The notes beneath the pieces are model-generated. The model had not been told where the DNA came from. It was given only the letters and a program-made list of their open reading frames with translations, and searched no databases. From assembly GCA_016205975.1 (NCBI GenBank), contig JACQSK010000021.1, forward strand, positions 106,593 to 170,592: a DNA stretch of 64,000 nucleotides. The letters run 5' to 3'. The stretch is from Candidatus Uhrbacteria bacterium (GTDB taxonomy: Bacteria; Patescibacteriota; Patescibacteriia; UBA9934; GWF2-40-263). Made by a program: the position numbers and the translations under genes. Numbering within the stretch: position 1 is the first letter of the stretch; each line of letters opens with the position of its first letter. Of this stretch, positions 2,982 through 52,128 are shown piece after piece.

Positions 2982-3093
2982 CTGGCTTTCCTCCAGGCGA
3001 CTAAGCTACGACGAAAATAGAGGATCGTCAAGGCGTCCCCTTGACCGCCCCACGCGAGCGTGACACAGTAGAGCTCGCTTGAGAGGTTCCAGC

Positions 3094-18099: not shown

Positions 18100-18189
18100 T
18101 GGAGCGGGTAGCGGGAGTCGAACCCTCTGGTAACCTCAATGATCTCCCAGGAAAGATCGCCGATTCCGCTCAACCTCGCGAAAACCCGC
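18100..18189 (-). tRNA. atypical tRNA-like element (about 90 nt, encoded CCA, discriminator U)
   Basis: Minus-strand RNA ends ...GAGGGUUCGACUCCCGCUACCCGCUCCA. 7-bp acceptor pairing of GCGGGUU with UACCCGC. Candidate anticodon hairpin GAUCU/AGAUC with an 8-nt loop. D-arm and variable region are non-canonical. Coordinates +/-2. Confidence 0.3.
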
Positions 18190-20578: not shown

Positions 20579-21363
20579 CTTGGCCCTCTTGCGCGCGCGT
20601 GGGTGAACGGTTACTATACTAAGGCATGGGCGTTCTGTCAAGCCACCGCCGGTTCACGCCGTACAATGAGGTACGTTGGCGCGCAATCGTGATGGTCCTG
20701 TCATTCAGACGACTTACGTACCAGGCGATGATGGAGGGCAGATGACCCCGAAGAAAGCTGCTGCGCATCGCAAGAAGGCGGCCTCGCTAGTTGATCGTCA
20801 CGGTCGTCGTTTTCGAGGGGAAAAGAACTTCAAACGGCGTACGGATGCCCTTCCTGAACACGTGGATCCCTGGGGTGTGCACAGCAACAGGGAGACGCAA
20901 GCGGTCCCCCGCCGTCGAGCAGCGAAGCCTGCCGAGCGCGAGGAACCCGGCAAGGAGAAGTGAGCAAGGCGAGCAGTGCTTTGGGTGCTCGTGGACCAGA
21001 CGTGCATGGGCACGGTTTGACACTCCACAAGGCATGGAGGGGAGTCGATTGCGCGAATCAGGCGCCGGATGAGATGGTGCGCTGACCCCGTCGAGGTCTA
21101 CGACGCGATCACCCGCGGCGCGTTCCCGCCGAACCCGTCCTGGATGTGCCCCCGGTGCGAGTACCGGCGGGCGTGCAGGGGCGCGATCGCGATGAAAGCT
21201 GCGGCGTGAACGAAAACGACCCACTCCCGGGACGCGGGGGTGGGTTTTCGATTCAGAAGAGGTGCGTGTTTCACCGGTGAAACAGGAGTACCTGCATCCG
21301 GCGGAGGCGGCACGCATGCCTGGTGACGGGCCTCTCCCCCGGCTTACGCCATCCACCGCGACC

Positions 21364-24322: not shown

Positions 24323-25255
24323 CTACGCCCCCATCCGCGCCGAGAGCCACGGTAGCCGCCCGATGGCGTCCCGGAGCAGCGCCTCGTCCCCGTGCAGGTA
24401 GCGGGCGGTAGTGGCGAGCGAGGCGTGGTTCAAGGACTGCCGGATGATCTCGGTCGCCACCCCGACGCGCAAGAGCGCCGTCGCGTGCGCGTGGCGCAAG
24501 AGGTGGGGATGGAGGCGCACCGCGAGGCCGGCCCTTTCCCCGAGCCGCGCGAGCCGGAGCTGGATGGCCCGGGTCGTGAGCCGGTAAACGACCGGCGAGC
24601 TGGCTGCCGACGTGAATCCGCGCGGATTTACACGGCTCGGGAACAGCGACCCGTCGTCCCGGCCCCGGACCTCGATCCACGCGCGCACGACCTCCGCGGC
24701 GCACGGGTGGAGGACCACGTCGGTCCGGCCCCCGCCCTTGCGGGTGGCGCCCCGCAGGTGGCCGGTCGCGAAGTCGACCTGGGCAACGTCAAGACCGGCC
24801 AGCTCGGCGACGCGCAGGCCGGTGTAGAAGAAGAGGAGGAGGATCGTGGTGTCCCGGGCCCGTCGCCAGGACGGGGCTTCCGACGCGAGCACCCCGAGCA
24901 ACCGCTCGACGTCGGCGACGCCCGGGGCGGCGATCACGGACCTGGGCACCCGGGCGCGGGAGATCCCCGTGGTGGGGTCCGCGGCGAGCACCCGCTCGCG
25001 CACGAGCCACGCGCACAGCCCGCGGACGATCACCAGCCGGCGGTTGCGGGTGGACGGCGCGAGCAGCGTCCCGTCCGCCTGGCGGGTGACGAACGCGGCG
25101 AGGGCCTCCGGTTCGAGGGGAATGGCGCGACGCACGAGGAGCCCCAGCTCCTCGCGGTAGCCGGCGACGGTGGTCTCCCCCAGCCGCCGGTCGTCGGCGA
25201 GGTGGCGCAGGTAGCGGGCGAGCAGGTCGAGAGTGAGAAGGACGGGGGTAGGCAT
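24323..25255 (-). CDS. tyrosine recombinase, XerC/XerD-like
   Basis: N-terminal SAM-like domain (TTVAGYREEL). C-terminal catalytic region HLLRHAHATALL ... LGHASLATTARYLH with the conserved R/H/R/Y pattern. 310 aa. Confidence 0.7.
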   Translation of the reverse strand: MPTPVLLTLDLLARYLRHLADDRRLGETTVAGYREELGLLVRRAIPLEPEALAAFVTRQADGTLLAPSTRNRRLVIVRGLCAWLVRERVLAADPTTGISRARVPRSVIAAPGVADVERLLGVLASEAPSWRRARDTTILLLFFYTGLRVAELAGLDVAQVDFATGHLRGATRKGGGRTDVVLHPCAAEVVRAWIEVRGRDDGSLFPSRVNPRGFTSAASSPVVYRLTTRAIQLRLARLGERAGLAVRLHPHLLRHAHATALLRVGVATEIIRQSLNHASLATTARYLHGDEALLRDAIGRLPWLSARMGA

Positions 25256-25618
25256 GGTGGGCGGCACGTCTTTCAAGGGGATCGGAACTTCGCAAAACCT
25301 ACGCGAGGGCGAAAAGAGGAGGTCCCCGTGCTGGGACCTCTCGTTGGCGTTCCGGTCTTCTGGGGTTGCTCCGCTTCCTGGCCGACGGTGGCCGCGACCG
25401 GATGCTCCTATGCTCGCGGTGTGCACAGGATGCGCGGGCTGCCTTGCTCCCGTCTGACCTGACGCCGCCGGCGAGGAGGCCGCCCGACGGGATAGCGTCG
25501 TCGGCGGGGAGTGGCGAGCCCCGTTCAACGCGCGCCCCGCACGTCACCCGTCTGCAGGACGGACGGGTTGTCGGCGCCGATGGTCTTCCACTTCTGATAC
25601 TCTCTTGCGTGAGAGGAT

Positions 25619-28683: not shown

Positions 28684-29951
28684 GTGTAACTCCTAGTCCG
28701 TTGGTTGAGTAGGTACGCTGTCGGGCCGAACCCGACCCAGGTTGTCAGCGCAGTGGTCCATCCATTCCATCCTTGTACCGGATGCCCATGCGCACGAAGC
28801 GCTTTTCGCTGGTGAACTCCGAGAAACGCTGCGGGTCGATTTCCGTCGGCTTCTTCCAGGGTCCACCCACACCCGTGCGGCTGAGCAGGATGCCGACGTG
28901 GACCTCCAGGCGGTCATCGGTGTCCAGGTCGGGTCGCATCGGGACCAGGAAGTGCATCCGCGGCGCGCGCGGCAGCTCCACCGAGGAGCGTGACAGCCAC
29001 TCCGCAAGCGGCACGAACCTCGTGGCTGGCGGCGCGGCGTGGGCGGGCGATCGATGCTCGCCATTGCCGGACAGTCGCTTGGCCATGGAATCCTCCCGCG
29101 AGGCGGCCCGGAACTCGGGGCGCCTGAGCGACCCTTGCACTGTGCGCGAGCGACTCCCGGCGGGTCAATGGCCGCCGCGAAAAAACCTGCCGCAACGGCG
29201 GGAGGTCCCCGCTGGTACCCCGATGGGCACGCGATCGTAGACGAGTAAAAAAGTTTTCGCGACGGGTGATCCGGGCGCGCTCGGGCCGTGCTGGCTGCCG
29301 TCCAATTCACGATCGAAATCGCCGGGTGCGGGTCGGGACGGTCGTGCCGGCGCCACATCCCCGGCGCAGCGAGCAGGAGCTTTCCGAGCATCTTGCACTG
29401 CACGAGCCGCACGGTCACGCTCGGGAAGTCCGACGGGTAGAGCGGCACCTGGTCCTTGTTCGTGAACTCGACCTTCACCGAGTCCTCGACCCGGGTGGTC
29501 CCCGTCCCGGACTTCAAGTGCGTCTCGATCTCGAGGCTCCGCCTGCCCGGGGCTAGCCTCGCGCGCGCGCGCGAAGAGAGAAGTGTGTCAACGGTATTGG
29601 CGAACAGTCTCCCGTCGATGCCGCCTCCTGGGGCGCGGTCGACGCTTCCCATGACGACAGCGAACACCGTCGGCTCGGCGGCGAGGATCTCGGGCTTGTC
29701 GTTGCGCCCCCGCGTCGGTGTCGTGCAGTGCGCCACCTCCGGGCCGGCGTCGAGCCGCACGGCTCATCCACGCCCAGCGCGGACGAGTGCACGCCGGGAA
29801 TCGCGTCCGGCGAGCAGCCGCGAAAGCCGTGCGCGCCCGGGAGCCGCTCGCATCGGCAAAATAAAGTTCGTGGGCCGCGAGACATTTGTCCTTCTGCGCA
29901 CCCTTCCTCAGTGAGCGACCTGGCATTTCGCGCGGCGCTCCGGAGCCCACG

Positions 29952-30716
29952 ATGGCCGAGAGCCCCACCGAGACCATGCTGCATCCCCCAGGACGTCACG
30001 CCAGCCTGCCGCCCGTGACCGCCACGCTCCCCGGCGAACGCAACCTTGCGCCCGAGCGCCTCGACCACCTCGCGAAGCGGATCCGTGAGCTGTGCGCCGG
30101 GGCGGGTCTCTCGAACGCCCGCCCGCTTGGGGAGTTCCTCGTCGAGGAGCTCTTCGACGGGGACGAGGAGGCGTTCTACGCCAACCCGTCCGGCCACGCC
30201 GCGTTCCGAGAACTCGCCAAGCGTCCCGACGTCCCGGTCTCGGGCCCGCACCTCGCCGCGTCCGTCGCGGTGCTCCGGCAGCTGCGCGAACTCCCGGCGG
30301 ATCTTGCCGAGGCACTCTCCTTCGAACACCACCGCGTGCTCCTCACCGTCCGCGACCTCGAGAAGAAGATCGCACTGGCCCGCATCGCGTGCGAGGAAGG
30401 GCTCAAGTGTCGGGCGTTCCGGCTGCGCGTGCGCGACGCGCGCGAGCCGCGCCGGGGCATGGTGCCTGGGCGCCCGCCGACCCCCGCCCTCCTGCGCATC
30501 GTCCACGACATCGAGACGCTCGCGTCGAAGTACGCAGAGCTAGCCCGGGGGGAAGAGGCGGCCGCCAAGGCGCTCGGCGCGGAGGGCGTGAAGGTGCTCG
30601 CCCGGCGTGTCGACAAGGTGATCACGACGCTCGACGACGCGAACGACGACCTGGGCGGCCATGTGGGCCTCGAACCGGGCTTCGCCGGCCGCGACGAGAT
30701 CCGCACGGAGTTGTGA
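29952..30716 (+). CDS. hypothetical protein
   Basis: ATG start MAESPTE. Helical, charged composition. The stop lies inside a 17-bp palindrome. Confidence 0.45.
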   Translation: MAESPTETMLHPPGRHASLPPVTATLPGERNLAPERLDHLAKRIRELCAGAGLSNARPLGEFLVEELFDGDEEAFYANPSGHAAFRELAKRPDVPVSGPHLAASVAVLRQLRELPADLAEALSFEHHRVLLTVRDLEKKIALARIACEEGLKCRAFRLRVRDAREPRRGMVPGRPPTPALLRIVHDIETLASKYAELARGEEAAAKALGAEGVKVLARRVDKVITTLDDANDDLGGHVGLEPGFAGRDEIRTEL

Positions 30717-30726
30717 CAGTCACAAC
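30710..30726. promoter_or_regulatory. 17-bp palindrome gttgtgacagtcacaac
   Basis: Perfect inverted repeat overlapping the stop of the upstream gene. Candidate operator. Confidence 0.4.
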
Positions 30727-30886
30727 TGTCCGGAAAACGGCAAGGCCGCCTTTCCATGCCCGTCAAGTCCACCCCACGAGTCCCCGGCACCCCGGCAGAG
30801 TCGACCGCGCCACCACGGTGCGGTATCGAGCTGGTCGACGTGCGCGAGGCCGAGGCCGGCGAAGCGTCGGCGGCGACACCGTGACC

Positions 30887-30902
30887 GTTATCACGTGATA
30901 AC
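30887..30902. promoter_or_regulatory. 16-bp perfect palindrome gttatcacgtgataac
   Basis: Read directly from the sequence. Confidence 0.4.
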
Positions 30903-30967
30903 ACCCGGCCTCGCGAGGGCCGGCGAGGGCACCGACGACCGCTGCGCGCGTGGTCGACCGGCAGCTA

Positions 30968-30983
30968 GTTGACGCGCGTCAAC
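30968..30983. promoter_or_regulatory. 16-bp perfect palindrome gttgacgcgcgtcaac
   Basis: Read directly. The 14-mer gctagttgacgcgc recurs at 33661-33674. Confidence 0.4.
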
Positions 30984-31439
30984 ATGACACGTCAAGACTT
31001 CGCCCTGGCGAGCCGGGGCCTGCGCGCGGATTTCGTAAGCGAGATGACCTCGGTCGCTCGGAAGGACATCAACCGTCTCGACGAGGCACTCGATGACGCC
31101 CGCAGCCACGCCGGCGTCGCTCTCGTCGACGGTGACAACGCGGCCGACGAGGCATGAACGTTACGGCGGCGGAACGTTTCCCCGGGGAAACGTTCGCCGC
31201 CTGCACCCTCGGCCGATCGGCCCCCGGCCGACACGCCGCTCGCCCGGCTGGTCGCCGACTTCGAGAAGATCACCGAGCGCTTCGCCTGCCTCGCGAAGGA
31301 CGCGGATGGCGCAACCGCGCTCGGGCGGGACGAGGTCCAGGGGCTCATCGGTCGCGTCTACCCGTACGCGGCCAAGGTCGAGGAAGCGATCGACGACATC
31401 GGGCTGCACGTCGGGATCGATGACGTCCGCGGGGAGAGC

Positions 31440-31494
31440 TAGCCGTCTTGTTTAGCCGGCTAAACAAGACGGCTACCGTCACGCGAGGCGTGAC
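31440..31494. terminator. 36-bp perfect palindrome (tagccgtcttgtttagcc|ggctaaacaagacggcta) plus adjacent 7-bp-stem hairpin
   Basis: Read directly. Lies between the interrupted small gene and the PilZ gene. Likely a bidirectional terminator or operator. Confidence 0.45.
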
Positions 31495-31577
31495 CGCGTC
31501 GTGCATGCGCGGTCCCTCGCGTCCTGCCCGGTCCAGTTGACACGCCCGCGACCACCCCGCCTCCAGGATCACCCGCC

Positions 31578-32309
31578 ATGGCCGACCCCGTGAAGATGAG
31601 CGCACCGTCGTCCCTGCCCCATCACGCCGTCCCGCCGCGGGTCGTGCCGCTCCCCGCCGAGGAGGCAGAGCGGGTGGTCGTCCGCGCGGCGTATGCGGGG
31701 GCCCACGTTCTCGTGCGCCTGCCGGGGTCCGACGCGCGGGTGAGCGCCTGCGTGGTGCATGGCGGAGCCCACCATGGCGAGCTGGCGCTCGGGGGATGGG
31801 CCATCCCGGTGCGGGTGCCGGCCGGGGCGACCGTGGCCGCCGAGTTCGTCCTGGGCGCGAGTGCCTACCGGGTCGAGGGGCGGGTCATCCGCTGCGAGGC
31901 GGAGATCGTCGCCCTCGACTGGCCGGTGCGCGTGTTGAAGGTCCAGCGCCGCCGCTACTTCCGGGTCCCGGCGCCCCCCGGCGTGGAGGTCGTGTTCCGC
32001 GTCCAGGATCGACCGCGGGTCCGGCCGCTCTTGGACCTGAGCGCGTCGGGGATCGGCCTCCAGCTCGACCTCGCGGAGGACGGCGACGTGCGCGAGGACA
32101 CGCCGGTCGAGGCGATCCAGGTCCCGTTGGGGTCCGCCGGGTGGTTCGTGGGCCAGGGCGTCACCCGGCGCGTGGTGGTCCCGCCCGCCGGCTCCACGTC
32201 TCCGCCGCGCTGCGGCATCGAGCTGGTCCACGTGCGCGAGGCGGAGCGCGATCGGCTCGTCGCGTGGGTCCTGGCGCGGGAGAGGGAGCTGCTCGCGGGA
32301 GCGCCCTGA
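31578..32309 (+). CDS. PilZ domain protein (c-di-GMP receptor)
   Basis: RRRYFRV (RxxxR) followed by DLSASGIGL (D.S..G) is the PilZ c-di-GMP binding signature. Confidence 0.6.
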   Translation: MADPVKMSAPSSLPHHAVPPRVVPLPAEEAERVVVRAAYAGAHVLVRLPGSDARVSACVVHGGAHHGELALGGWAIPVRVPAGATVAAEFVLGASAYRVEGRVIRCEAEIVALDWPVRVLKVQRRRYFRVPAPPGVEVVFRVQDRPRVRPLLDLSASGIGLQLDLAEDGDVREDTPVEAIQVPLGSAGWFVGQGVTRRVVVPPAGSTSPPRCGIELVHVREAERDRLVAWVLARERELLAGAP

Positions 32310-32322
32310 GCGGCGTTCCCAC

Positions 32323-32700
32323 GTGGCCTCCGATAGACTGCGCGGCCCGATGTCCTCCCCCCGTGCGTTGCTGTTCATCGACCTCCGGCTGCCAGCGGCG
32401 TTCGTCCTGGACGAGCCGGCGTTCCTCCGGGTGAACGACGGGGTGCTCGTCGTGGACGGAATCTCGGCGGTCGAGGCGCGCCGAGTCGCGGCGCAGCTCG
32501 TCTACGACGGGGCGCGCGCCCACGTGGCGCTACCCGCGCCGGGGACCACGCCCGACACCCCCGGTCACCCGCACCCGGCCGGGACGCTCGTGCACGTCCC
32601 GGGAGACGGAGCGGGTTGGGGCGCGGAGCTGCCACGACTCGTGGCGGCGAGGGTCGGCTCCCGCGCCGCGGCCGGGAAACCGCGCGGCGTCCCGGGGTAG
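32323..32700 (+). CDS. hypothetical protein
   Basis: Short ORF immediately after the PilZ gene. Weak evidence. Confidence 0.25.
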   Translation: MASDRLRGPMSSPRALLFIDLRLPAAFVLDEPAFLRVNDGVLVVDGISAVEARRVAAQLVYDGARAHVALPAPGTTPDTPGHPHPAGTLVHVPGDGAGWGAELPRLVAARVGSRAAAGKPRGVPG

Positions 32701-32749
32701 CGTCGAGATCCCGGGACGTTCCGCTGGCCCGTCCGCTACCGAGCGGTAC

Positions 32750-33487
32750 CTACAGCTCCTGGGCCACGAGCGTCACGGCGATCAACTCGCCCTCCACACC
32801 CCTGGTCCTGAGCCGGTTCGCCGCCGCGTGGGACGCGCCAGCGATGTCGGCGGCGACGAGCCCGTAGGCGCGAACTCCCGTCGGCGTCTCGACCTGCACG
32901 ATGTACACGAGCTGACCGCTCGCGGTGCCCGGGGATGCGCTCGGCGAAGGGGAAGGCGCGGGCGTCGCGGCAACAACCGGCGCTGGCGGCGCTGCGAGGG
33001 CGTCGCGGTCCGCCGTAGCCAGCTCGATGCCCCGGCGGGCTCGGTAGGTCCGGACGTTCTCGGGCGTCACGCCAGCGAGCTTGGCGATCTCGTCGTCCGG
33101 CGCCTTGCCGAGCATGGCCGCGTACGGGTCGAGCTTCGACCGGCGGCCGTAAAACGGCCGCACACGGCCTGTACCTGCCGCGGAAGCCGCCGCCCTCGCC
33201 GCCGGCGCTCTGGTGCGCGAGGCCGACGCGGATGCGATCGATGCCGGGGCGGCGGGTCGCACGATGCGCCGCCGCGGTGCGCGTGTCGCGGGCTCCGCCG
33301 CCGCTGGCGCTTGTCGTCCCGGTCCGGCCCCGAACTTGTAGCCCTCGTAGGCGGGGATCCCGAGCTGCTTGCGGTAGTTCACGATCGACGACCGGGACAC
33401 GCCCGCCTCCCTCGCAACGAGGTGGTCCGGCTCCTTTCCAAGCCGGTCGTGGAAGGCAGCGAGCTTCGTGGCGCTCGGGCTGGGCAT
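32750..33487 (-). CDS. hypothetical protein with two repeated HTH-like segments
   Basis: EAGVSRSSIVNYRKQLGI and LAGVTPENVRTYRARRGI are duplicated. Pro/Ala-rich linker between them. Confidence 0.4.
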   Translation of the reverse strand: MPSPSATKLAAFHDRLGKEPDHLVAREAGVSRSSIVNYRKQLGIPAYEGYKFGAGPGRQAPAAAEPATRAPRRRIVRPAAPASIASASASRTRAPAARAAASAAGTGRVRPFYGRRSKLDPYAAMLGKAPDDEIAKLAGVTPENVRTYRARRGIELATADRDALAAPPAPVVAATPAPSPSPSASPGTASGQLVYIVQVETPTGVRAYGLVAADIAGASHAAANRLRTRGVEGELIAVTLVAQEL

Positions 33488-33685
33488 GATCGAGGCTCCG
33501 GGGATGAGCTCGGTCGTATGCCACCGGGTTTCGCATGACAACGGGTCCGGTCCCCCGGATCGCGGCGACAGCGGCCCTGCGTGCCGGGAGGGCCCCGGGA
33601 GTGTGCGACCGGGAGCGACGCGGCCAACGAAAACAACAGGACCCTCCGGCCCTGTCTTTTGCTAGTTGACGCGCCTGGGCGTCTT

Positions 33686-35368
33686 CTACGCATCCCGCGC
33701 CCGGATCCACGTTTCGAGCTGCGTCGGGGGCATCGGCCGCGCGACGTGCCAGCCTTGCGCCTGGTCGGCTCCGTTCTCGCGCAGGTACTGCGCCGCGGCC
33801 GCCGTCTCCACCCCCTCGGCGATCACCGCGAGGTCCAGCCCGTGCCCGAGCTCGATCGTCGCCCGGACCACGAGTGCCTCCTTGCGGCCCGCCGGGAGCG
33901 CGCGGACGAACCGCTGGTCGATCTTCACCGCGGAGACCGGGAGGGACACCAGGTAGCCGAGCGAGGAGTACCCGGTGCCGAAGTCGTCGATGGATACCGC
34001 GATCCCCCGCGCCGCCAGCTCCCCCAGGACCGCGATGGCGTGCGCCGGGTCCTGCATGATCTCGCTCTCGGTCACTTCCAGCTCCAGGCAGCTCGGCGGC
34101 ATCTCGGCCTGGGCAAGCGCCGCGTCGAGGTGCTCGACCAGGTCCGCGCGACCGAGGAGCCGCGCGGAGAGGTTCACTGCGACCCGCGTGCCCGGGTGGG
34201 TGGACAGCCACGAGCGCGACTCGGAAAGTGCGCGTCGAACGAGGGACCGGGTGAGCGGCACGATGTCGCCCAGCCGCTCGGCGACGGGGATGAACCGGCC
34301 GGGTGGAACCGGGCCCAGCTCCGGGTGCGTCCAGCGCGCCAGCGCCTCGGCTCCCGAAAAGGCGCCGCTCGCGAGGTCGACCTTGGGCTGGTAGGCGAGG
34401 GTGATCTCCCCGCGCTCGACCGCGCGGCGCAGGTCCGCAGCTAGCGCGAGCGCGGAGGGGTCGAACGTGTCCATGGTGACGTTGAACTCGACGAGTGCTT
34501 CGCCGGAGCGCCGGCTCGCGTTCACGGCGACGTGGGCAGCACGGCGCAGCGCGTTCACGCCGGTCCCGTCGCGGGGGGAAACCGCGAACCCGGCCGCGGC
34601 CGCGACGGTGAGCCGCACCCCGCCGATCTCCACCGGGTTCGCGAGCGCCCCGAGCAGGTCCTGGGCGATCTGCCGGCACGTCGCCGGCCCCTCCGGCACG
34701 AGCACGGCGAACCCGTCCCCGCCGCCGCGCGCGAGCAGGCAGCCCGGGGGCGTGGCCCTCCGGGCGCGCTCGGCCAGCTCCTGGAGGACCCGGTCGCCCA
34801 GCTCGAACCCCAGCGCGTGGTTGATCTCCCGGAACTCCCGGATCTCCACCGCGATGAAGCCCGTCTCGGCGACGCCCGCGAGCTGAGCCGCCTCGAACGC
34901 CGCCATCGCGTTGCGGTTGGGCAGCCCCGTGAGCGGGTCGTGGTAGGCGAGCCAGTGCGCGCGCTCGTCGGCGGCCCTTCGCGCCGCGCGCTCCTGGGCC
35001 CGCACCATCTCGCGCGCCAACGCGCCGGGAAGGCGGGCGAGCCGGTCCTTGGGGACGAAGTCGTCCGCGCCCCGGCGGACGAGGTCGGCCACGGTCTCCT
35101 CGCCGACGGTCCCGGAGACGACCAGAAGCGCCACGTCGCGCAGGCGGGCACGCACGAGCGCGATGCTCTCGCCTGCGTCGAGCTCGGGCAGGTGTGCGTC
35201 CACGAGCACCGCGTCCCAGGACTCGCCCAGGGCCTCTTCGAGCCCCGGCCGGTCCTCGACCCGGGAGACCGCGACAGTCAAGCCACCGCGGCGCAGCGCC
35301 CGCAGCACGAGCTCCGCGTCGGCCGGGTCGTCCTCGACGTGCAGGATGCGAAGGGGAGGGGTGGGCAT
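33686..35368 (-). CDS. response regulator receiver-GGDEF(degenerate)-EAL protein (c-di-GMP phosphodiesterase type)
   Basis: N-terminal REC (ILHVEDDPADAELV ... DAVLVD). GGDGF in place of GGDEF. EAL motif (EALARW) and DDFGTGYSSL. Confidence 0.75.
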   Translation of the reverse strand: MPTPPLRILHVEDDPADAELVLRALRRGGLTVAVSRVEDRPGLEEALGESWDAVLVDAHLPELDAGESIALVRARLRDVALLVVSGTVGEETVADLVRRGADDFVPKDRLARLPGALAREMVRAQERAARRAADERAHWLAYHDPLTGLPNRNAMAAFEAAQLAGVAETGFIAVEIREFREINHALGFELGDRVLQELAERARRATPPGCLLARGGGDGFAVLVPEGPATCRQIAQDLLGALANPVEIGGVRLTVAAAAGFAVSPRDGTGVNALRRAAHVAVNASRRSGEALVEFNVTMDTFDPSALALAADLRRAVERGEITLAYQPKVDLASGAFSGAEALARWTHPELGPVPPGRFIPVAERLGDIVPLTRSLVRRALSESRSWLSTHPGTRVAVNLSARLLGRADLVEHLDAALAQAEMPPSCLELEVTESEIMQDPAHAIAVLGELAARGIAVSIDDFGTGYSSLGYLVSLPVSAVKIDQRFVRALPAGRKEALVVRATIELGHGLDLAVIAEGVETAAAAQYLRENGADQAQGWHVARPMPPTQLETWIRARDA

Positions 35369-46803: not shown

Positions 46804-47551
46804 TCGAAAAGGAAAGGCCGGACGAGGAGAATATCCAGTCCGGTCTTTTTGTTTCTTGCGACGCGAAGGACGACTGTCTGGCGCGCCGGTCTTGCGGGCG
46901 ATGCCCAATCGCGTCGATCAGCCCAGTAGCCAGCCACAATCTGCGTGACGGCGCCGCCGGTCCTCACTCGCGAGGATCGCGTCGACCTCGAGACCGAGCT
47001 GGATCCGCGCACGGACCTCGCCGTCGCGCTGGTAGATGGCGTCCGTGGCCTGGCTCTCGGCGGTGTCGCAGCGACCGCATCGATGCGGAAGGAGCGTCGA
47101 CGAGCCGTCCGGCCAGAGCCAGATATGGCGAGCCTCGTGCGAAATCGAGATTGCCGTCTCGAGAACCCCGTGTTGCTCAGGCGGAACCGCTAGAATCGCG
47201 ACGCGATGGAGACGCTGAGTGATGCATGCCAGGGCGCCGGGGCCGCACGCCGTCGGCGAAAAGGCGATCGTGAGAACCTTCCTTCGGACCGCAGCGTGCT
47301 CCTCGGGCACGTAGTGCTGCAACAGCCCGAGCGCCGTGCGAATGACGTGTACCCCCACGGGCGTGAAGCCCACCAGAGGAATCCCGCGGAACGCTGCCCG
47401 AGGGTAACGGGGTGCGACGGCCGCGTGCATGAGACCTCCGCCCGCAGCTTACACGCCTGGGCGCGCGTTCGGGATCCATGCGCGAGGCCGCTCCGATCGG
47501 AGCGGCCTGCCGGTCCACTGGATCCAGCTCGACAACGAAGAAACCGCTCGC

Positions 47552-48751
47552 CTATCGAGGCGAGCGGTGATTTGCCGAACGCGAGATCCCCGCCTTCGCC
47601 ATCACCTCCGCCTTGTGGGCGTCGGTGGTGTGCGCGTAGATCTCGTCCAGCATGCGCCCCTCGGTCCAGCCGCCGAGCTCCATGAGCGTGCGCCGATCGA
47701 CACCGGCGATCGCGAGCCGCGTCGCCCAGGTGTGGCGGAGACCGTGCGGGTGCATCGGGGGGAGGCCCGCGCGCTTGCAGGCGCGGCGCAGCGCGATGCC
47801 GAAGTCCTGGCGGGGCCGCGTGGGCGCGGTCGGGGAGGGGAAGACCCACCCGTGGGTAGGAGCGCCGAGTGCCACGTGACGGCGCCTGAGCTCGTCGGCG
47901 AGCTCGGGCGTCATCGGGATGGCGCGGTCATGCCGGGTTTTCACCTGGAACCGGATCTCCGGCTTCGCCCGGACCAGCATCGTGCCGTGCGGACCGACGT
48001 CCCACAGCACGTCTTCCCAGCCGCGCGAGAGGATCTCTCCCTTGCGCATGCCGAGGTTCAACGCCATCAGCACCGCGAGGTACGTGAGCGGGTCGCGCGG
48101 GATCGGGGGCTTCCCTCGCGTGACGACGTGAGGCTGTTCGCGCAGCGGCCCGACGGCGTCCAGGAGTCGTTCGCACTCCTCCGTGGAGAAGAAGCGATGA
48201 GCCCGACGATCGTTGTTCTTGATCCTTGGCATCTTGGGCAGGTGCGAGAGCACGCCGCTGTCGACCGCGTGGACGAGCGCGCCGCGAAGCCAGGCCAGCT
48301 CGATGATGATCGTCTTGCTCTTGCGCCCAAGAGCCCGCCGGGCGGTGACGTACCCGTCGATCGCGACGTAGTCGAGCGCGGAGAGCACGGTGTCGCCCAG
48401 CACCGGCTTCAACGCGTTCGCCGAGGTCTGCGCGCTCGTCGCGGTCTTCGGCGCCTTGTCGCGCCGGACCACCGGCAGGTAGACCTCGTCGAGGTAGCGC
48501 GCGAGCGTGTAGCCCGCGGGCTCAGCCCTCGTCGAGGAGCCACGCTCGGTACGCGGCGGCTCCACGGACTTCCCGGTCACGAGTTTCCCCTCGAACACCG
48601 TGAGCGCGTCCTTCGCCGCGGTCCTCGGGATGAACCCGAGCCCCCGGGTGCGGGTCTTGCCCGTTCCCGGGTCGCGCCACTGGATCGCGAAGTAGGGTTC
48701 CGTCTTGCCGCTGGCGCGGTTCACGCGCTTCACCTCGGTCAGCCATGCCAT
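47552..48751 (-). CDS. int: phage-type tyrosine integrase
   Basis: N-terminal arm-binding-like MAWLTEVKRVNRASGKTEPYFAIQWRDPGTGKTRTRG. C-terminal HGLRHTWATRLAIAGV...LGGWTEGRMLDEIYAHT. Lies next to the tRNA-like site. Confidence 0.7.
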   Translation of the reverse strand: MAWLTEVKRVNRASGKTEPYFAIQWRDPGTGKTRTRGLGFIPRTAAKDALTVFEGKLVTGKSVEPPRTERGSSTRAEPAGYTLARYLDEVYLPVVRRDKAPKTATSAQTSANALKPVLGDTVLSALDYVAIDGYVTARRALGRKSKTIIIELAWLRGALVHAVDSGVLSHLPKMPRIKNNDRRAHRFFSTEECERLLDAVGPLREQPHVVTRGKPPIPRDPLTYLAVLMALNLGMRKGEILSRGWEDVLWDVGPHGTMLVRAKPEIRFQVKTRHDRAIPMTPELADELRRRHVALGAPTHGWVFPSPTAPTRPRQDFGIALRRACKRAGLPPMHPHGLRHTWATRLAIAGVDRRTLMELGGWTEGRMLDEIYAHTTDAHKAEVMAKAGISRSANHRSPR

Positions 48752-49211
48752 CGTCTCTCTCCTTCCCGGCCGCGAGCACCGCGACCAGTCGTTCCCGGTG
48801 AATGCGCCACGCCCGGCCCGCCCGGACGGCGGCGCCGTCGAGCTGCCCCTCGGCGAGCAGCCGGCGGAGCAGCCGCTCCGACACCTGGAGGTGCGCGGCC
48901 GCCTCCTCCACGCTGAGCCAGTCGGACCGGCTCTCCCCGGGAGCGTACTGCGCGGACGGTGGAGCGGGGGAGGGGGGCGAGCGCTCCGCCGGCGACCCAC
49001 CGGTCGCTCCCAGGGTCGCGAGCACGTCCCCCCACCGGTAGACGGTAGACCCCGCGATCTCCCCGGCGGGAGCGACCGTCGCGACCAGCCACGCCTGTGC
49101 GCCGGGGCCGGGGCACGGGAGCGCCTCGGCCGCCTCCTGCGCGGACAGGAGCGACGTGGGCGCGAGCGACGCGCGCCACATCCGTCGCTGGAACGCGGAG
49201 AGCGCGCTCAT
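48752..49211 (-). CDS. excisionase/HTH-like DNA-binding protein (boundaries uncertain; frame runs on into the integrase gene)
   Basis: WLSVEEAAAHLQVSERLLRRLLAEGQLDGAAVRAGRAWRIHRERL is an Xis/MerR-like HTH just upstream of int. The ORF has no stop until 48522. Confidence 0.3.
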
Positions 49212-51171: not shown

Positions 51172-52128
51172 TCATGGCCGTTCCCCGGCCCTGAAAGACC
51201 CTTCCTGCACGCTCCCAGGATCCGCACCTGCACGAGATCCTGGACCCACCAGGCCGTTCCCACCGTGGGAACGGTCCGTCGGAACGGTTTCCACGAGGCA
51301 AGACGGCGCAAGGCGCGCGCGCTCGGTGCCGTCCTGGGTGACGACCCTCGGGGTGAGCCAGGCGGTCGGCGCGAGGATGTCCCGGTCGGTCAGCTCGCTG
51401 GCCACGGCGAAGGAGACGAGCCCCTCGGGAAGGCCCGCCTCCCAGGCCGCGAGCGCAAGGCGATTGCGCCTCCGGGCGGTGGGGACGGTGACGGCGACGC
51501 GCCAGTTCGAGGTACCCAGGAGCGGCGCGCCCGCGCTCCGGAGCGCGGCGTACGCGAGCGCCTTGTGCGCGAGCCAGCTCGGGGACTCGGTGCCGAGGTC
51601 CACTTCGAAGGCGACGGCGACCTGGCCGGCCCCCGCGGAGAGCAGGGCGACCGCGTCGGGCACGAGCCGAGCGTTCGGCAGCGCGCGCCGGAGTTCCCCC
51701 TCGAACAGGAAGCGTGCGAGCCGCCAGGCGCGCGAGCGACCGCACGCGACCGAGAGCGCGACGTAGAGGTCGACCTGCCCGTCGTGGTGGGCGAGGTTCA
51801 CGCGCTCGACCCCGTCGCGCACGCGGTAGTCCCCGGCCTCGCCGCCGAGGGCCGCCGCCAAGACCGGCCGCGCCGCGGGCGCGAGCGTGACGCGGTTGGG
51901 CCCGTTCAATCCCTCGGGGAGGTGCACGGTCACGAGCCCCAGGTCGCGCAGGACGCGCAGGCGCCGACGCGCCATGGGCACGCTCATCTGCACGCCGCGC
52001 GCGACCTGGTCGATGGTGACCGGCTGCGCGCGCTCGACGAGCGTGAGCACGAGGGTGTCGCGCACGGTCCGGCGCGCCCCGCCCGGGTCGCGACGCGCGG
52101 TGCGGCGGCTCGCCTCAGCGGGCATCAT
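51172..52128 (-). CDS. replication-relaxation (Replic_Relax) family protein
   Basis: N-terminal winged HTH (TLVLTLVERAQPVTIDQVARGV ... RRLRVLRDLGLV). Overall similarity to mobile-element replication-relaxation proteins, assessed from memory. Confidence 0.5.
   Translation of the reverse strand: MMPAEASRRTARRDPGGARRTVRDTLVLTLVERAQPVTIDQVARGVQMSVPMARRRLRVLRDLGLVTVHLPEGLNGPNRVTLAPAARPVLAAALGGEAGDYRVRDGVERVNLAHHDGQVDLYVALSVACGRSRAWRLARFLFEGELRRALPNARLVPDAVALLSAGAGQVAVAFEVDLGTESPSWLAHKALAYAALRSAGAPLLGTSNWRVAVTVPTARRRNRLALAAWEAGLPEGLVSFAVASELTDRDILAPTAWLTPRVVTQDGTERARLAPSCLVETVPTDRSHGGNGLVGPGSRAGADPGSVQEGSFRAGERP

Follow-up and report, generated by a model that had tools for sequence, protein, structure and literature searches.

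Palindromes beside a predicted ParB/Noc-type regulator gene are candidate binding sites within a mosaic of orphan gene fragments

We analyzed a stretch of about 800 bp in a 64-kb piece of DNA (contig JACQSK010000021.1 of GenBank assembly GCA_016205975.1), which is referred to as the window and whose coordinates are used below. The stretch starts at the end of a gene for a predicted ParB/Noc-type helix-turn-helix (HTH) protein and extends to the start region of a gene for a PilZ-domain protein. It contains a series of palindromes and two open reading frames (ORFs) that follow each other in the same frame across a TGA codon. The elements are as follows, from left to right.

29952-30716, plus strand: gene for the predicted ParB/Noc-type HTH protein (254 residues); the C-terminal helical hairpin is referred to as module A
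30709-30727: palindrome P1, AGTTGTGAC-A-GTCACAACT (9+1+9), overlapping the TGA stop codon (30714-30716) of the 29952-30716 gene
30780-30884, plus strand: orphan 3' piece of a PilZ gene, duplicating 32172-32309, with its stop codon at 30882-30884
30887-30902: palindrome P2, GTTATCACGTGATAAC, 2 nt past the stop codon of the PilZ fragment
30968-30983: palindrome P3, GTTGACGCGCGTCAAC, abutting the ATG of the first orphan (module B)
30984-31157, plus strand: orphan module B, the last 57 codons and the TGA of another copy of the HTH gene family
31156-31179: degenerate palindrome a', GAACGTTACGGCGGCGGAACGTTT, overlapping P4
31158-31442, plus strand: orphan linker and module C, 95 codons, in frame with module B across the TGA
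31172-31195: P4, a perfect palindrome of 24 bp with the core GTTTCCCCGGGGAAAC, starting 8 nt past the in-frame TGA
31440-31475: P5, a perfect palindrome of 36 bp with the core GTTTAGCCGGCTAAAC, starting with the TAG stop codon of the 31158-31442 frame
31478-31494, plus strand: hairpin GTCACGC-gag-GCGTGAC with a 7-bp stem
31533-31598, plus strand: conserved promoter-like stretch and 5' leader, GTTGACAC ... ATG GCC GAC CC, extending into the PilZ gene
31578-32309, plus strand: intact PilZ-domain gene (Pfam PilZ, E 1.2e-7)

Reading of the sequence and a listing of the perfect palindromes of the window recovered, with small corrections to the coordinates, all palindromes that had been reported in a first-pass annotation; a sixth dyad, P4, and the degenerate a' that overlaps it were missing from that annotation. 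P4 has an imperfect extension to 37 bp (31165-31201), in which the left arm carries one extra G. The cluster is real and non-random: the 64 kb contain 17 perfect palindromes whose arms are at least 8 bp long, and 5 of them lie within 770 bp (binomial P ~1e-6). The dyads share a common template, GTT-N4-CG-N4-AAC, with the dyad center between the C and the G, so that GTT occupies positions -8 to -6 from the center and C position -1. Matches to the pattern GTTNNNNCGNNNNAAC number 7 in the window, compared with 0.78 expected, a count that none of 100 shuffled sequences reached. Each dyad has a sequence of its own, and the remaining 63 kb contain only two other perfect dyads of this template, at 21267 and 51254. 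A degenerate sequence resembling P2, GTTCCCACGTGGCCTC, follows the stop codon of the intact PilZ gene (32314-32329).

A second repeat noted earlier, the 14-mer GCTAGTTGACGCGC, does recur at 33661-33674, but this copy is not upstream of the gene for a REC-GGDEF-EAL protein: the gene is on the minus strand (33686-35368), and the copy lies 12 bp 3' of its stop codon. The 14-mer is one of five exact 14-mer matches between the 1.1-kb region and the window (E 0.22 each), and the half-site GTTGACGC is not enriched (6 occurrences, compared with 3.6 expected). An operator shared with the GGDEF-EAL gene was rejected, given a match of chance level that is located at the wrong end of the gene.

The product of the gene at 29952-30716 belongs to a large protein family. 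An exhaustive HMMER search gave 670 relatives, 258 of them with E-values below 1e-10, and most of these proteins are 220-250 residues long. When 50 aligned relatives were compared with Pfam, 27 matched HTH_ParB (best E 8.6e-7) and 7 matched DUF1016_N, the only other hits being two single-member matches. An AlphaFold (AF2) model of the 29952-30716 protein, built on the alignment of these 50 relatives, has a mean predicted local distance difference test (pLDDT) score of 87.5. In this model, an all-helical DNA-binding domain is connected by a nonhelical linker, located at a nearly invariant GR(P) motif, to a long helical hairpin (H179-200 and H202-237). The best 25 Foldseek matches in the PDB are all DNA-binding domains of ParB, Spo0J, or Noc (prob 0.38-1.0), and the template modeling (TM) score of the model to the DNA-binding domain of Noc is 0.58-0.61. 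The modeled structure and the Pfam matches of the relatives thus indicate that the protein has a ParB-type HTH DNA-binding domain. An N-terminal ParB/Srx domain that binds cytidine triphosphate (the CTPase domain) was recognized neither by Pfam, in the protein and the 50 relatives, nor in the model, in which only two helices (residues 34-68) precede the HTH.

The family is unnamed. Searches of PHROGs, NCBIfam, and PDB sequences with the protein and the orphan modules gave no named relative, and word-indexed homologue searches returned only the query itself (a hypothetical protein of a "Candidatus Uhrbacteria" metagenome-assembled genome, MAG) or 3 proteins. Ten cluster representatives that were looked up were all metagenomic and unnamed. 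Viral contigs, 72,556 plasmids, and 50,697 phages contained neither a relative of the protein nor a match to the palindromes.

To see what accompanies the gene elsewhere, the DNA around other family members was fetched; 18 other loci were inspected, and 16 of these (50 kb) were compared with shuffled sequences. A perfect palindrome of the template was found within about 300 bp of the family gene in 10 of the 18 loci:

L008: GTTCTCACGTGAGAAC (P2 class), 68 bp upstream and 52 bp downstream of the family gene
L011, L013, and L016: GTTCACGCGCGTGAAC (P3 class), 6-85 bp past the stop codon of the family gene
L019: GTTTCCCCGGGGAAAC, the exact 16-bp core of P4, 155 bp upstream of the family gene
L015: ATTTCCCCGGGGAAAT, 187 bp upstream of the family gene
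L023: GTTCCCCCGGGGGAAC, 92 bp upstream of the family gene
L024: GTTTCCGCGCGGAAAC, 163 bp upstream of the family gene
L006: ATTCCCCCGGGGGAAT, about 315 bp upstream of the family gene
L004: four dyads, downstream of the family gene

The 16 loci contain 11 perfect dyads of the form RTT-N4-CG-N4-AAY, compared with 0.007 in shuffled sequences, and 9 of the 11 lie no more than 400 bp from the gene. A count that does not depend on the template points in the same direction: among inverted repeats with arms of at least 8 bp, 16 of 29 near family genes are free of a spacer, as opposed to 2 of 24 elsewhere in the same loci. The zero spacer fits recognition of DNA by a dimer and not an RNA hairpin. The recognition helix appears to vary together with the class of site, A[HY]NT.WYS occurring with GTTCACGC and SY..WNA with [GA]TTTCCCC, a co-variation that is confounded by the relatedness of the proteins. 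A scan of a genome collection for 24-mers of the P4 type gave one unrelated match, in the murG-murC spacer of a Terriglobia MAG (L005, 6400-6700). This match is the 24-mer of an L004 dyad, GAACGTTTCGCCGGCGAAACGTTC; the spacer also contains another long hairpin, and the match is probably a coincidence or an unrelated hairpin element.

The palindromes resemble the sites of characterized ParB-family proteins. The consensus sequences of parS (TGTTTCAC-GTGAAACA) and of the Noc-binding site, NBS (TATTTCCC-GGGAAATA), have been described (PMC7383237). The similarity to the ParB-parS and Noc-NBS pairs comprises the DNA-binding fold (as seen with Foldseek, and as HTH_ParB in the relatives) and the presence of 16-bp perfect dyads with (G/A)TTTC-type half-sites beside the gene. 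The inner 8 bp of P2, TCACGTGA, are the same as in the parS core, P4 reads as an NBS, and the dyad at 21267 reads as parS, the latter two with 2 bp added at the center. The half-sites in the template dyads are like those of parS and NBS, but each lies 1 bp further from the dyad axis. The systems differ in other respects as well. Since no CTPase domain was detected, a CTP-gated clamp or spreading along DNA is not expected for the present family. Pfam, PHROGs, and NCBIfam scans of the neighboring larger ORFs (19-41 kb, with some small ORFs unscanned) gave no match of the ParA/CbiA type, and the C-terminus is a long helical hairpin in a family that has no name in Pfam, NCBIfam, or PHROGs. A further comparison is with KorB of the IncP-1 plasmid RK2, a ParB-family protein that represses transcription in a mobile element through palindromic operators. 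The KorB operator OB is TTTAGCGGCTAAA (PMC5577506), and the core of P5, TTTAGC-CG-GCTAAA, has OB half-sites. OB, however, is 13 bp long, compared with 14-16 bp for the cores described here, KorB has a CTPase domain and works with IncC, KorA, and TrbA, and the family described here is absent from the plasmids and phages that were searched.

Based on the association of gene and site across loci, the zero-spacer dyads, and the half-sites resembling those of parS, NBS, and OB, we read the palindromes as putative binding sites of the family. On balance, we favor the explanation that the cluster consists of binding sites of a ParB/Noc-type family without a recognizable CTPase domain, and that it is embedded in a recombination mosaic of orphan 3' fragments of the gene for this same family. 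The earlier proposal that the palindromes are operator sites of a dedicated regulator is thereby borne out insofar as they are candidate protein-binding sites. Of the two regulators that had been put forward, the 29952-30716 product and the tandem-HTH protein (32750-33487), the former is favored by its predicted ParB/Noc-type fold and by the same-template palindromes beside the genes of its relatives. A dedicated control of the adjacent c-di-GMP genes was not upheld, since the neighbors of the regulator differ between loci and include Pvc16_N, a response regulator, an integrase, and PLD. P5 is the sole palindrome here at an operator-like distance from the start codon of the PilZ gene (103-138 bp upstream of the ATG), a distance comparable to that of the sites upstream of genes in other loci. 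As to the other functions that had been considered, the palindromes may have a centromere-like role, although the neighboring ORFs that were scanned include no ParA gene, and nothing points to oriT.

Several observations weigh against this explanation. The match of the 29952-30716 product itself to Pfam HTH_ParB (E 0.042) is below the cutoff, and a tryptophan of the recognition helix that is conserved in the nine correctly aligned site-bearing relatives is an alanine in this protein. The inner four positions differ among the six sites, so that one protein is unlikely to bind all six well. There is no site upstream of the gene in the window, unlike the situation in half of the other loci, and P2 follows the stop codon of a PilZ fragment and not of a family gene. 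Eight of the 18 other loci, many of them on very short contigs, lack such a palindrome. The orphan fragments retain a strong and very clean coding-type GC pattern, which is unexpected for old relics, and in RNA, P4 and P5 would fold into highly stable hairpins right behind stop codons.

The latter property raises the question of whether the palindromes act at the RNA level, as 3'-end hairpins (terminators lacking a U-tract, or transcript stabilizers) of a high-GC organism. P1, P2, a'/P4, and P5 all begin 0-10 nt from a stop codon, P4 folds at -35 kcal/mol (z -3.4 relative to shuffled sequences), and P5 with the adjacent hairpin folds at -50 kcal/mol (z -5.3), which resembles the very stable stem-loops found right after stop codons as terminators or 3' stabilizing hairpins in high-GC bacteria. 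P1-P3, on the other hand, fold no better than shuffled sequences. None of P1-P5 is followed by a T-run, and a scan of 29400-33800 found no plus-strand intrinsic terminator (a GC-rich hairpin followed by a T-run) at any palindrome; nor did Rfam reveal a known RNA family in the stretch. The loop-free symmetry and the conserved positions of GTT and AAC are not required by a hairpin, and the same dyads are found 70-320 bp upstream of the gene in other family loci. We consider it rather unlikely that RNA hairpins account for the palindromes, but P4 and P5 may also act on transcripts.

The palindromes could also be generic repeats that have nothing to do with the HTH protein, either a genome-wide family similar to repetitive extragenic palindromes or attachment (att) or core sites of a tyrosine integrase. 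Gene fragments pile up at the palindromes, and the window is rich in mobile-element genes and contains two more dyads of the same template (at 21267 and 51254). The features of the window that are relevant here are:

21267-21284: template site TGTTTCACCGGTGAAACA, identical to consensus parS with 2 bp added at the center, intergenic and at a step in GC content
24323-25528, minus strand: tyrosine integrase gene
47555-49000, minus strand: tyrosine integrase gene
51175-52128, minus strand: Replic_Relax gene

However, the other 63 kb contain only two further copies, and palindrome and family gene are also associated in metagenomes unrelated to this one, among them loci without a visible integrase. 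The dyads are perfect and have no asymmetric core, unlike integron attC sites. The latter are imperfect, span 57-141 bp with the arrangement RYYYAAC ... GTTRRRY, and are found next to IntI and attI; here the dyads are perfect and 16-36 bp long, inspection shows GTT...AAC, that is, the opposite order, and the nearest integrase gene is 4.4 kb away on the other strand. Generic repeats are thus a very unlikely explanation. The gene beside the dyad at 51254 (51172-52128) does not belong to the family; it is the Replic_Relax gene.

The reading frame around the TGA was the second subject of the first-pass annotation, in which 30969-31157 and 31158-31442 had been described as one small gene, possibly a pseudogene or a recoded gene, interrupted by this codon. 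The two segments are indeed in one frame with the TGA (31155-31157) between them. The codon is real: Logan contigs of the sequencing runs SRR12113422, SRR12113401, and SRR12113431 match the window at 100% identity from their first base to 31469 (the shortest to 31026). A sequencing error at the TGA was rejected because the independently assembled contigs that reach 31469 agree with the window. Two of the contigs end at 31469, that is, inside P5, as would be expected of a k-mer assembler at a true palindrome.

The notion of a single interrupted gene was not supported; the segments before and after the TGA are distinct C-terminal pieces, paralogous to each other, from the family of the upstream gene. 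Module B aligns with residues 202-240 of the family member P0003 at 67% identity (E 9e-10), its DNA is 75% identical to the 3' end of the expressed gene in locus L004, and its GC content by codon position is 0.75/0.46/0.79. Module C matches residues 167-241 of the window protein (P0001), that is, the linker and the C-terminal hairpin, with 35% identity (E 4e-8), and a comparison of module A, taken as the C-terminal 60 residues of the window protein, with module C gave an E-value of 4e-9. Modules A, B, and C are hence paralogous. Modules B and C each end in their own stop codon, which is followed by a palindrome. There is no ATG, GTG, or TTG in 31158-31442. Because each half is paralogous to the C-terminus of the regulator and has its own stop codon, we take them to be the 3' remnants of two additional regulator gene copies. 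The fragment of the PilZ gene is likewise duplicated sequence: 30819-30850 matches 32211-32242 over 32 bp (94% identity, E 2e-7), and its peptide PPRCGIELVDVREAE matches the C-terminus of the intact PilZ gene. A frameshifted gene starting at the ATG of the ATGA at 31154 was rejected, as the assemblies agree on the present sequence and tblastn finds homology in the TGA frame from 31167; this ATG would be joined to module C if P4 lost the additional G of its left arm, or if the CCCCC at 31221-31225 lost one C.

Recoding would entail that the TGA is read through or decoded as selenocysteine, aided by the hairpin downstream, giving a two-module product of 153 residues. The frames are continuous and the second lacks a start codon, a strong hairpin begins 8 nt past a TGA that is real in independent assemblies, and an orphan in L004 is likewise in frame after the homologous TGA. 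Of the features of selenoproteins and programmed readthrough, the UGA and the hairpin are thus present; a coding signal across the UGA and an Rfam match were not found. The 72-nt linker that follows the TGA has no coding-type GC pattern by codon position (0.71/0.79/0.71, compared with 0.76/0.41/0.93 in module C at 31230-31439), there was no match to an Rfam recoding family or selenocysteine insertion sequence (SECIS) family at E up to 1, and the TGA has no redox-type motif around it. Full-length relatives normally end at the homologous TGA, and the in-frame junction is a single inherited event common to L004, where the downstream frame contains a TAG. The first ORF, moreover, has no Shine-Dalgarno sequence, and its own expression is uncertain. 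Recoding is therefore extremely improbable. The alternative, a mosaic of leftovers, implies that the TGA is the ordinary stop codon of orphan B, after which orphan C follows, and that no gene is interrupted.

L004, the locus of P0003, comes from a different sample and shares its flanks with the window. Upstream, 29146-29514 of the window is 77% identical to L004 27-389. This match concerns the region ahead of the regulator gene, where an 865-bp stretch has no called gene; part of it can be read as a small minus-strand gene (...KSGTGTTRVEDSVKVEFTNKDQVPLYPSDFPSVTVRLVQCKML...) without a Pfam match. Downstream, the promoter-like stretch and the first PilZ codons (31533-31598) are 80% identical to L004 2408-2476. 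Between these flanks the C-terminal modules are swapped: module A is expressed and module B is an orphan in the window, and the reverse holds in L004, where the expressed C-terminus matches window 31053-31178 and the orphan matches window 30506-30685. The perfect palindrome GAACATTCCGCCGGCGGAATGTTC overlaps the stop codon of the expressed L004 gene, and its counterpart in the window is a'. One of the four L004 dyads is the 24-mer of P4 with a symmetric C/G swap. The orphan that follows the homologous TGA in frame carries an internal TAG. Both loci are mosaics with palindromes at the junctions, and the a'/P4 composite looks as if it had formed by a deletion joining the outermost dyads of an array like that of L004. 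Two further observations were made on L004. At 2457-2861, seven codons from the start of the PilZ gene (MADPVTM) run directly into the 3' part of a gene unrelated to it, forming another recombination junction, and at 3040-3089 the end of the contig resembles the 3' half of a tRNA gene (GGTTCGAATCC...), although ARAGORN reports no tRNA in L004.

The module swap also brings to mind a programmed exchange, in which the orphans would serve as a silent store of C-terminal modules, and recombination at or near the palindromes would bring them into the expressed regulator gene. The palindromes would then be cassette boundaries or recombination sites. The exchange would change the module used for dimerization or for interaction with a partner. 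Expressed and orphan modules have been exchanged between the window and L004, the orphans start at a domain boundary in a linker encoding a GRPP-like motif, a palindrome ends every fragment, and a tyrosine recombinase gene lies 4.4 kb upstream. The start-less orphans keep a coding-type GC pattern (0.76/0.41/0.93 in the window and 0.72/0.42/0.97 in L004), and the ratio of nonsynonymous to synonymous substitution rates (dN/dS) between the orphan and expressed copies of module B is ~0.3, which is only suggestive because dS is saturated (~1). Comparable features, namely start-less 3' fragments located after a full-length gene, alternative C-terminal domains, and exchange of expressed and orphan modules between related loci, are known from CdiA-CT, Rhs-CT, pilS-type cassettes, and shufflons. 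In those systems the protein is a toxin, pilin, or adhesin, whereas here it is a DNA-binding regulator, and immunity genes are absent. There are also no inverted cassettes or sfx-like repeats as in shufflons, but only two or three modules in direct orientation. With all modules in the same orientation, switching by simple inversion is not possible, and one single arrangement was seen across three independent assemblies. The 5' boundaries lack a shared repeat, the L004 orphan has its internal TAG, and module B of the window is truncated to 57 codons. Orphan modules occur only in the window and L004, and in none of the other 16 family loci. Finally, L022 (44-1370) contains two full-length family genes in tandem on one short contig, and such tandem paralogues offer a simple precursor for orphan relics. 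We therefore regard programmed exchange as improbable, and we give the same small chance to the wider idea that a regulator of integrative elements diversifies by way of promoterless, start-less downstream cassettes bounded by its own binding sites.

The explanation that we favor, binding sites within a mosaic of relics, would work as follows. The protein would form a dimer held together by the C-terminal helical hairpin and would place one recognition helix in each half-site. Binding would repress or insulate a promoter, depending on the position of the site; other loci have it either 70-320 bp ahead of the regulator gene itself or directly behind its stop codon. The several variants of the site would reflect repeated recombination at, or replacement of, the regulator gene, so that each event would have preserved, as a remnant, the 3' end of an older copy and the palindrome that follows its stop codon. 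The presumed remnants are module B (with a'), module C (with P5), and the PilZ 3' fragment (with P2).

ParB-family proteins are understood as CTP-gated clamps that are loaded at parS, NBS, or OB sites. A ParB-family protein with a palindromic site is thus a known kind of pair; what is new here is a family without a recognizable CTPase domain and a wider class of site. This unnamed branch of ~670 sequence clusters, so far found in metagenomes only, has the DNA-reading head of ParB/Noc and appears to go with a site class of its own, whose parS-like half-sites are 2 bp further apart. The evolution of ParB-type specificity and of half-site spacing can be studied on the concrete protein-site pairs that it provides, and its members are candidates for regulators or incompatibility determinants of little-known integrative elements in high-GC bacteria. 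The mismatched sites and orphan modules suggest a fast joint turnover of regulator and site. A programmed turnover would represent a novel means of diversifying a DNA-binding protein, and if the orphans were true cassettes, they would constitute a switching system for a transcription factor or a centromere-binding protein that possibly sets immunity or incompatibility between related elements. In annotation, the "TGA-interrupted ORF" should accordingly not be labeled as recoded.

Mobile-element settings are frequent for the family. L023 contains Replic_Relax, an HTH_17 excisionase-like gene, and an integrase, L013 contains DUF2924, and another family member adjoins a resolvase. Some additional dyads were seen in the window. 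One is a near-palindromic match to the template, GTTCCTCCGGGTGAAC (32421-32436), in the ORF (32350-32700) that follows the PilZ gene. A palindrome of 24 bp at 47485-47508 comes right after the stop codon of the second integrase gene, and the dyad at 51254-51274, CCGTTCCCAC-C-GTGGGAACGG, spans 21 bp at the 3' end of the Replic_Relax ORF. The 21267-21284 site directly follows a terminator-like hairpin and is exactly at the position where the GC content steps from ~60% (1-21 kb) to 70-75%.

This step is part of a compositional break in the window, in which GC is 0.57-0.65 over positions 1-21000 and 0.65-0.77 over 21000-59000. A gene for tRNA-Arg(GCG) with an unusual length of 90 nt lies on the minus strand at 18100-18189; together, the break and this long tRNA gene suggest an island boundary. 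The NCBI source label of the contig is a Candidatus Uhrbacteria MAG (locus tag HY631_04380). The GC content of 70-75%, the MopE metal-binding repeats, and the FG-GAP and caspase-domain proteins are myxobacteria-like, and the contig may be mis-binned.

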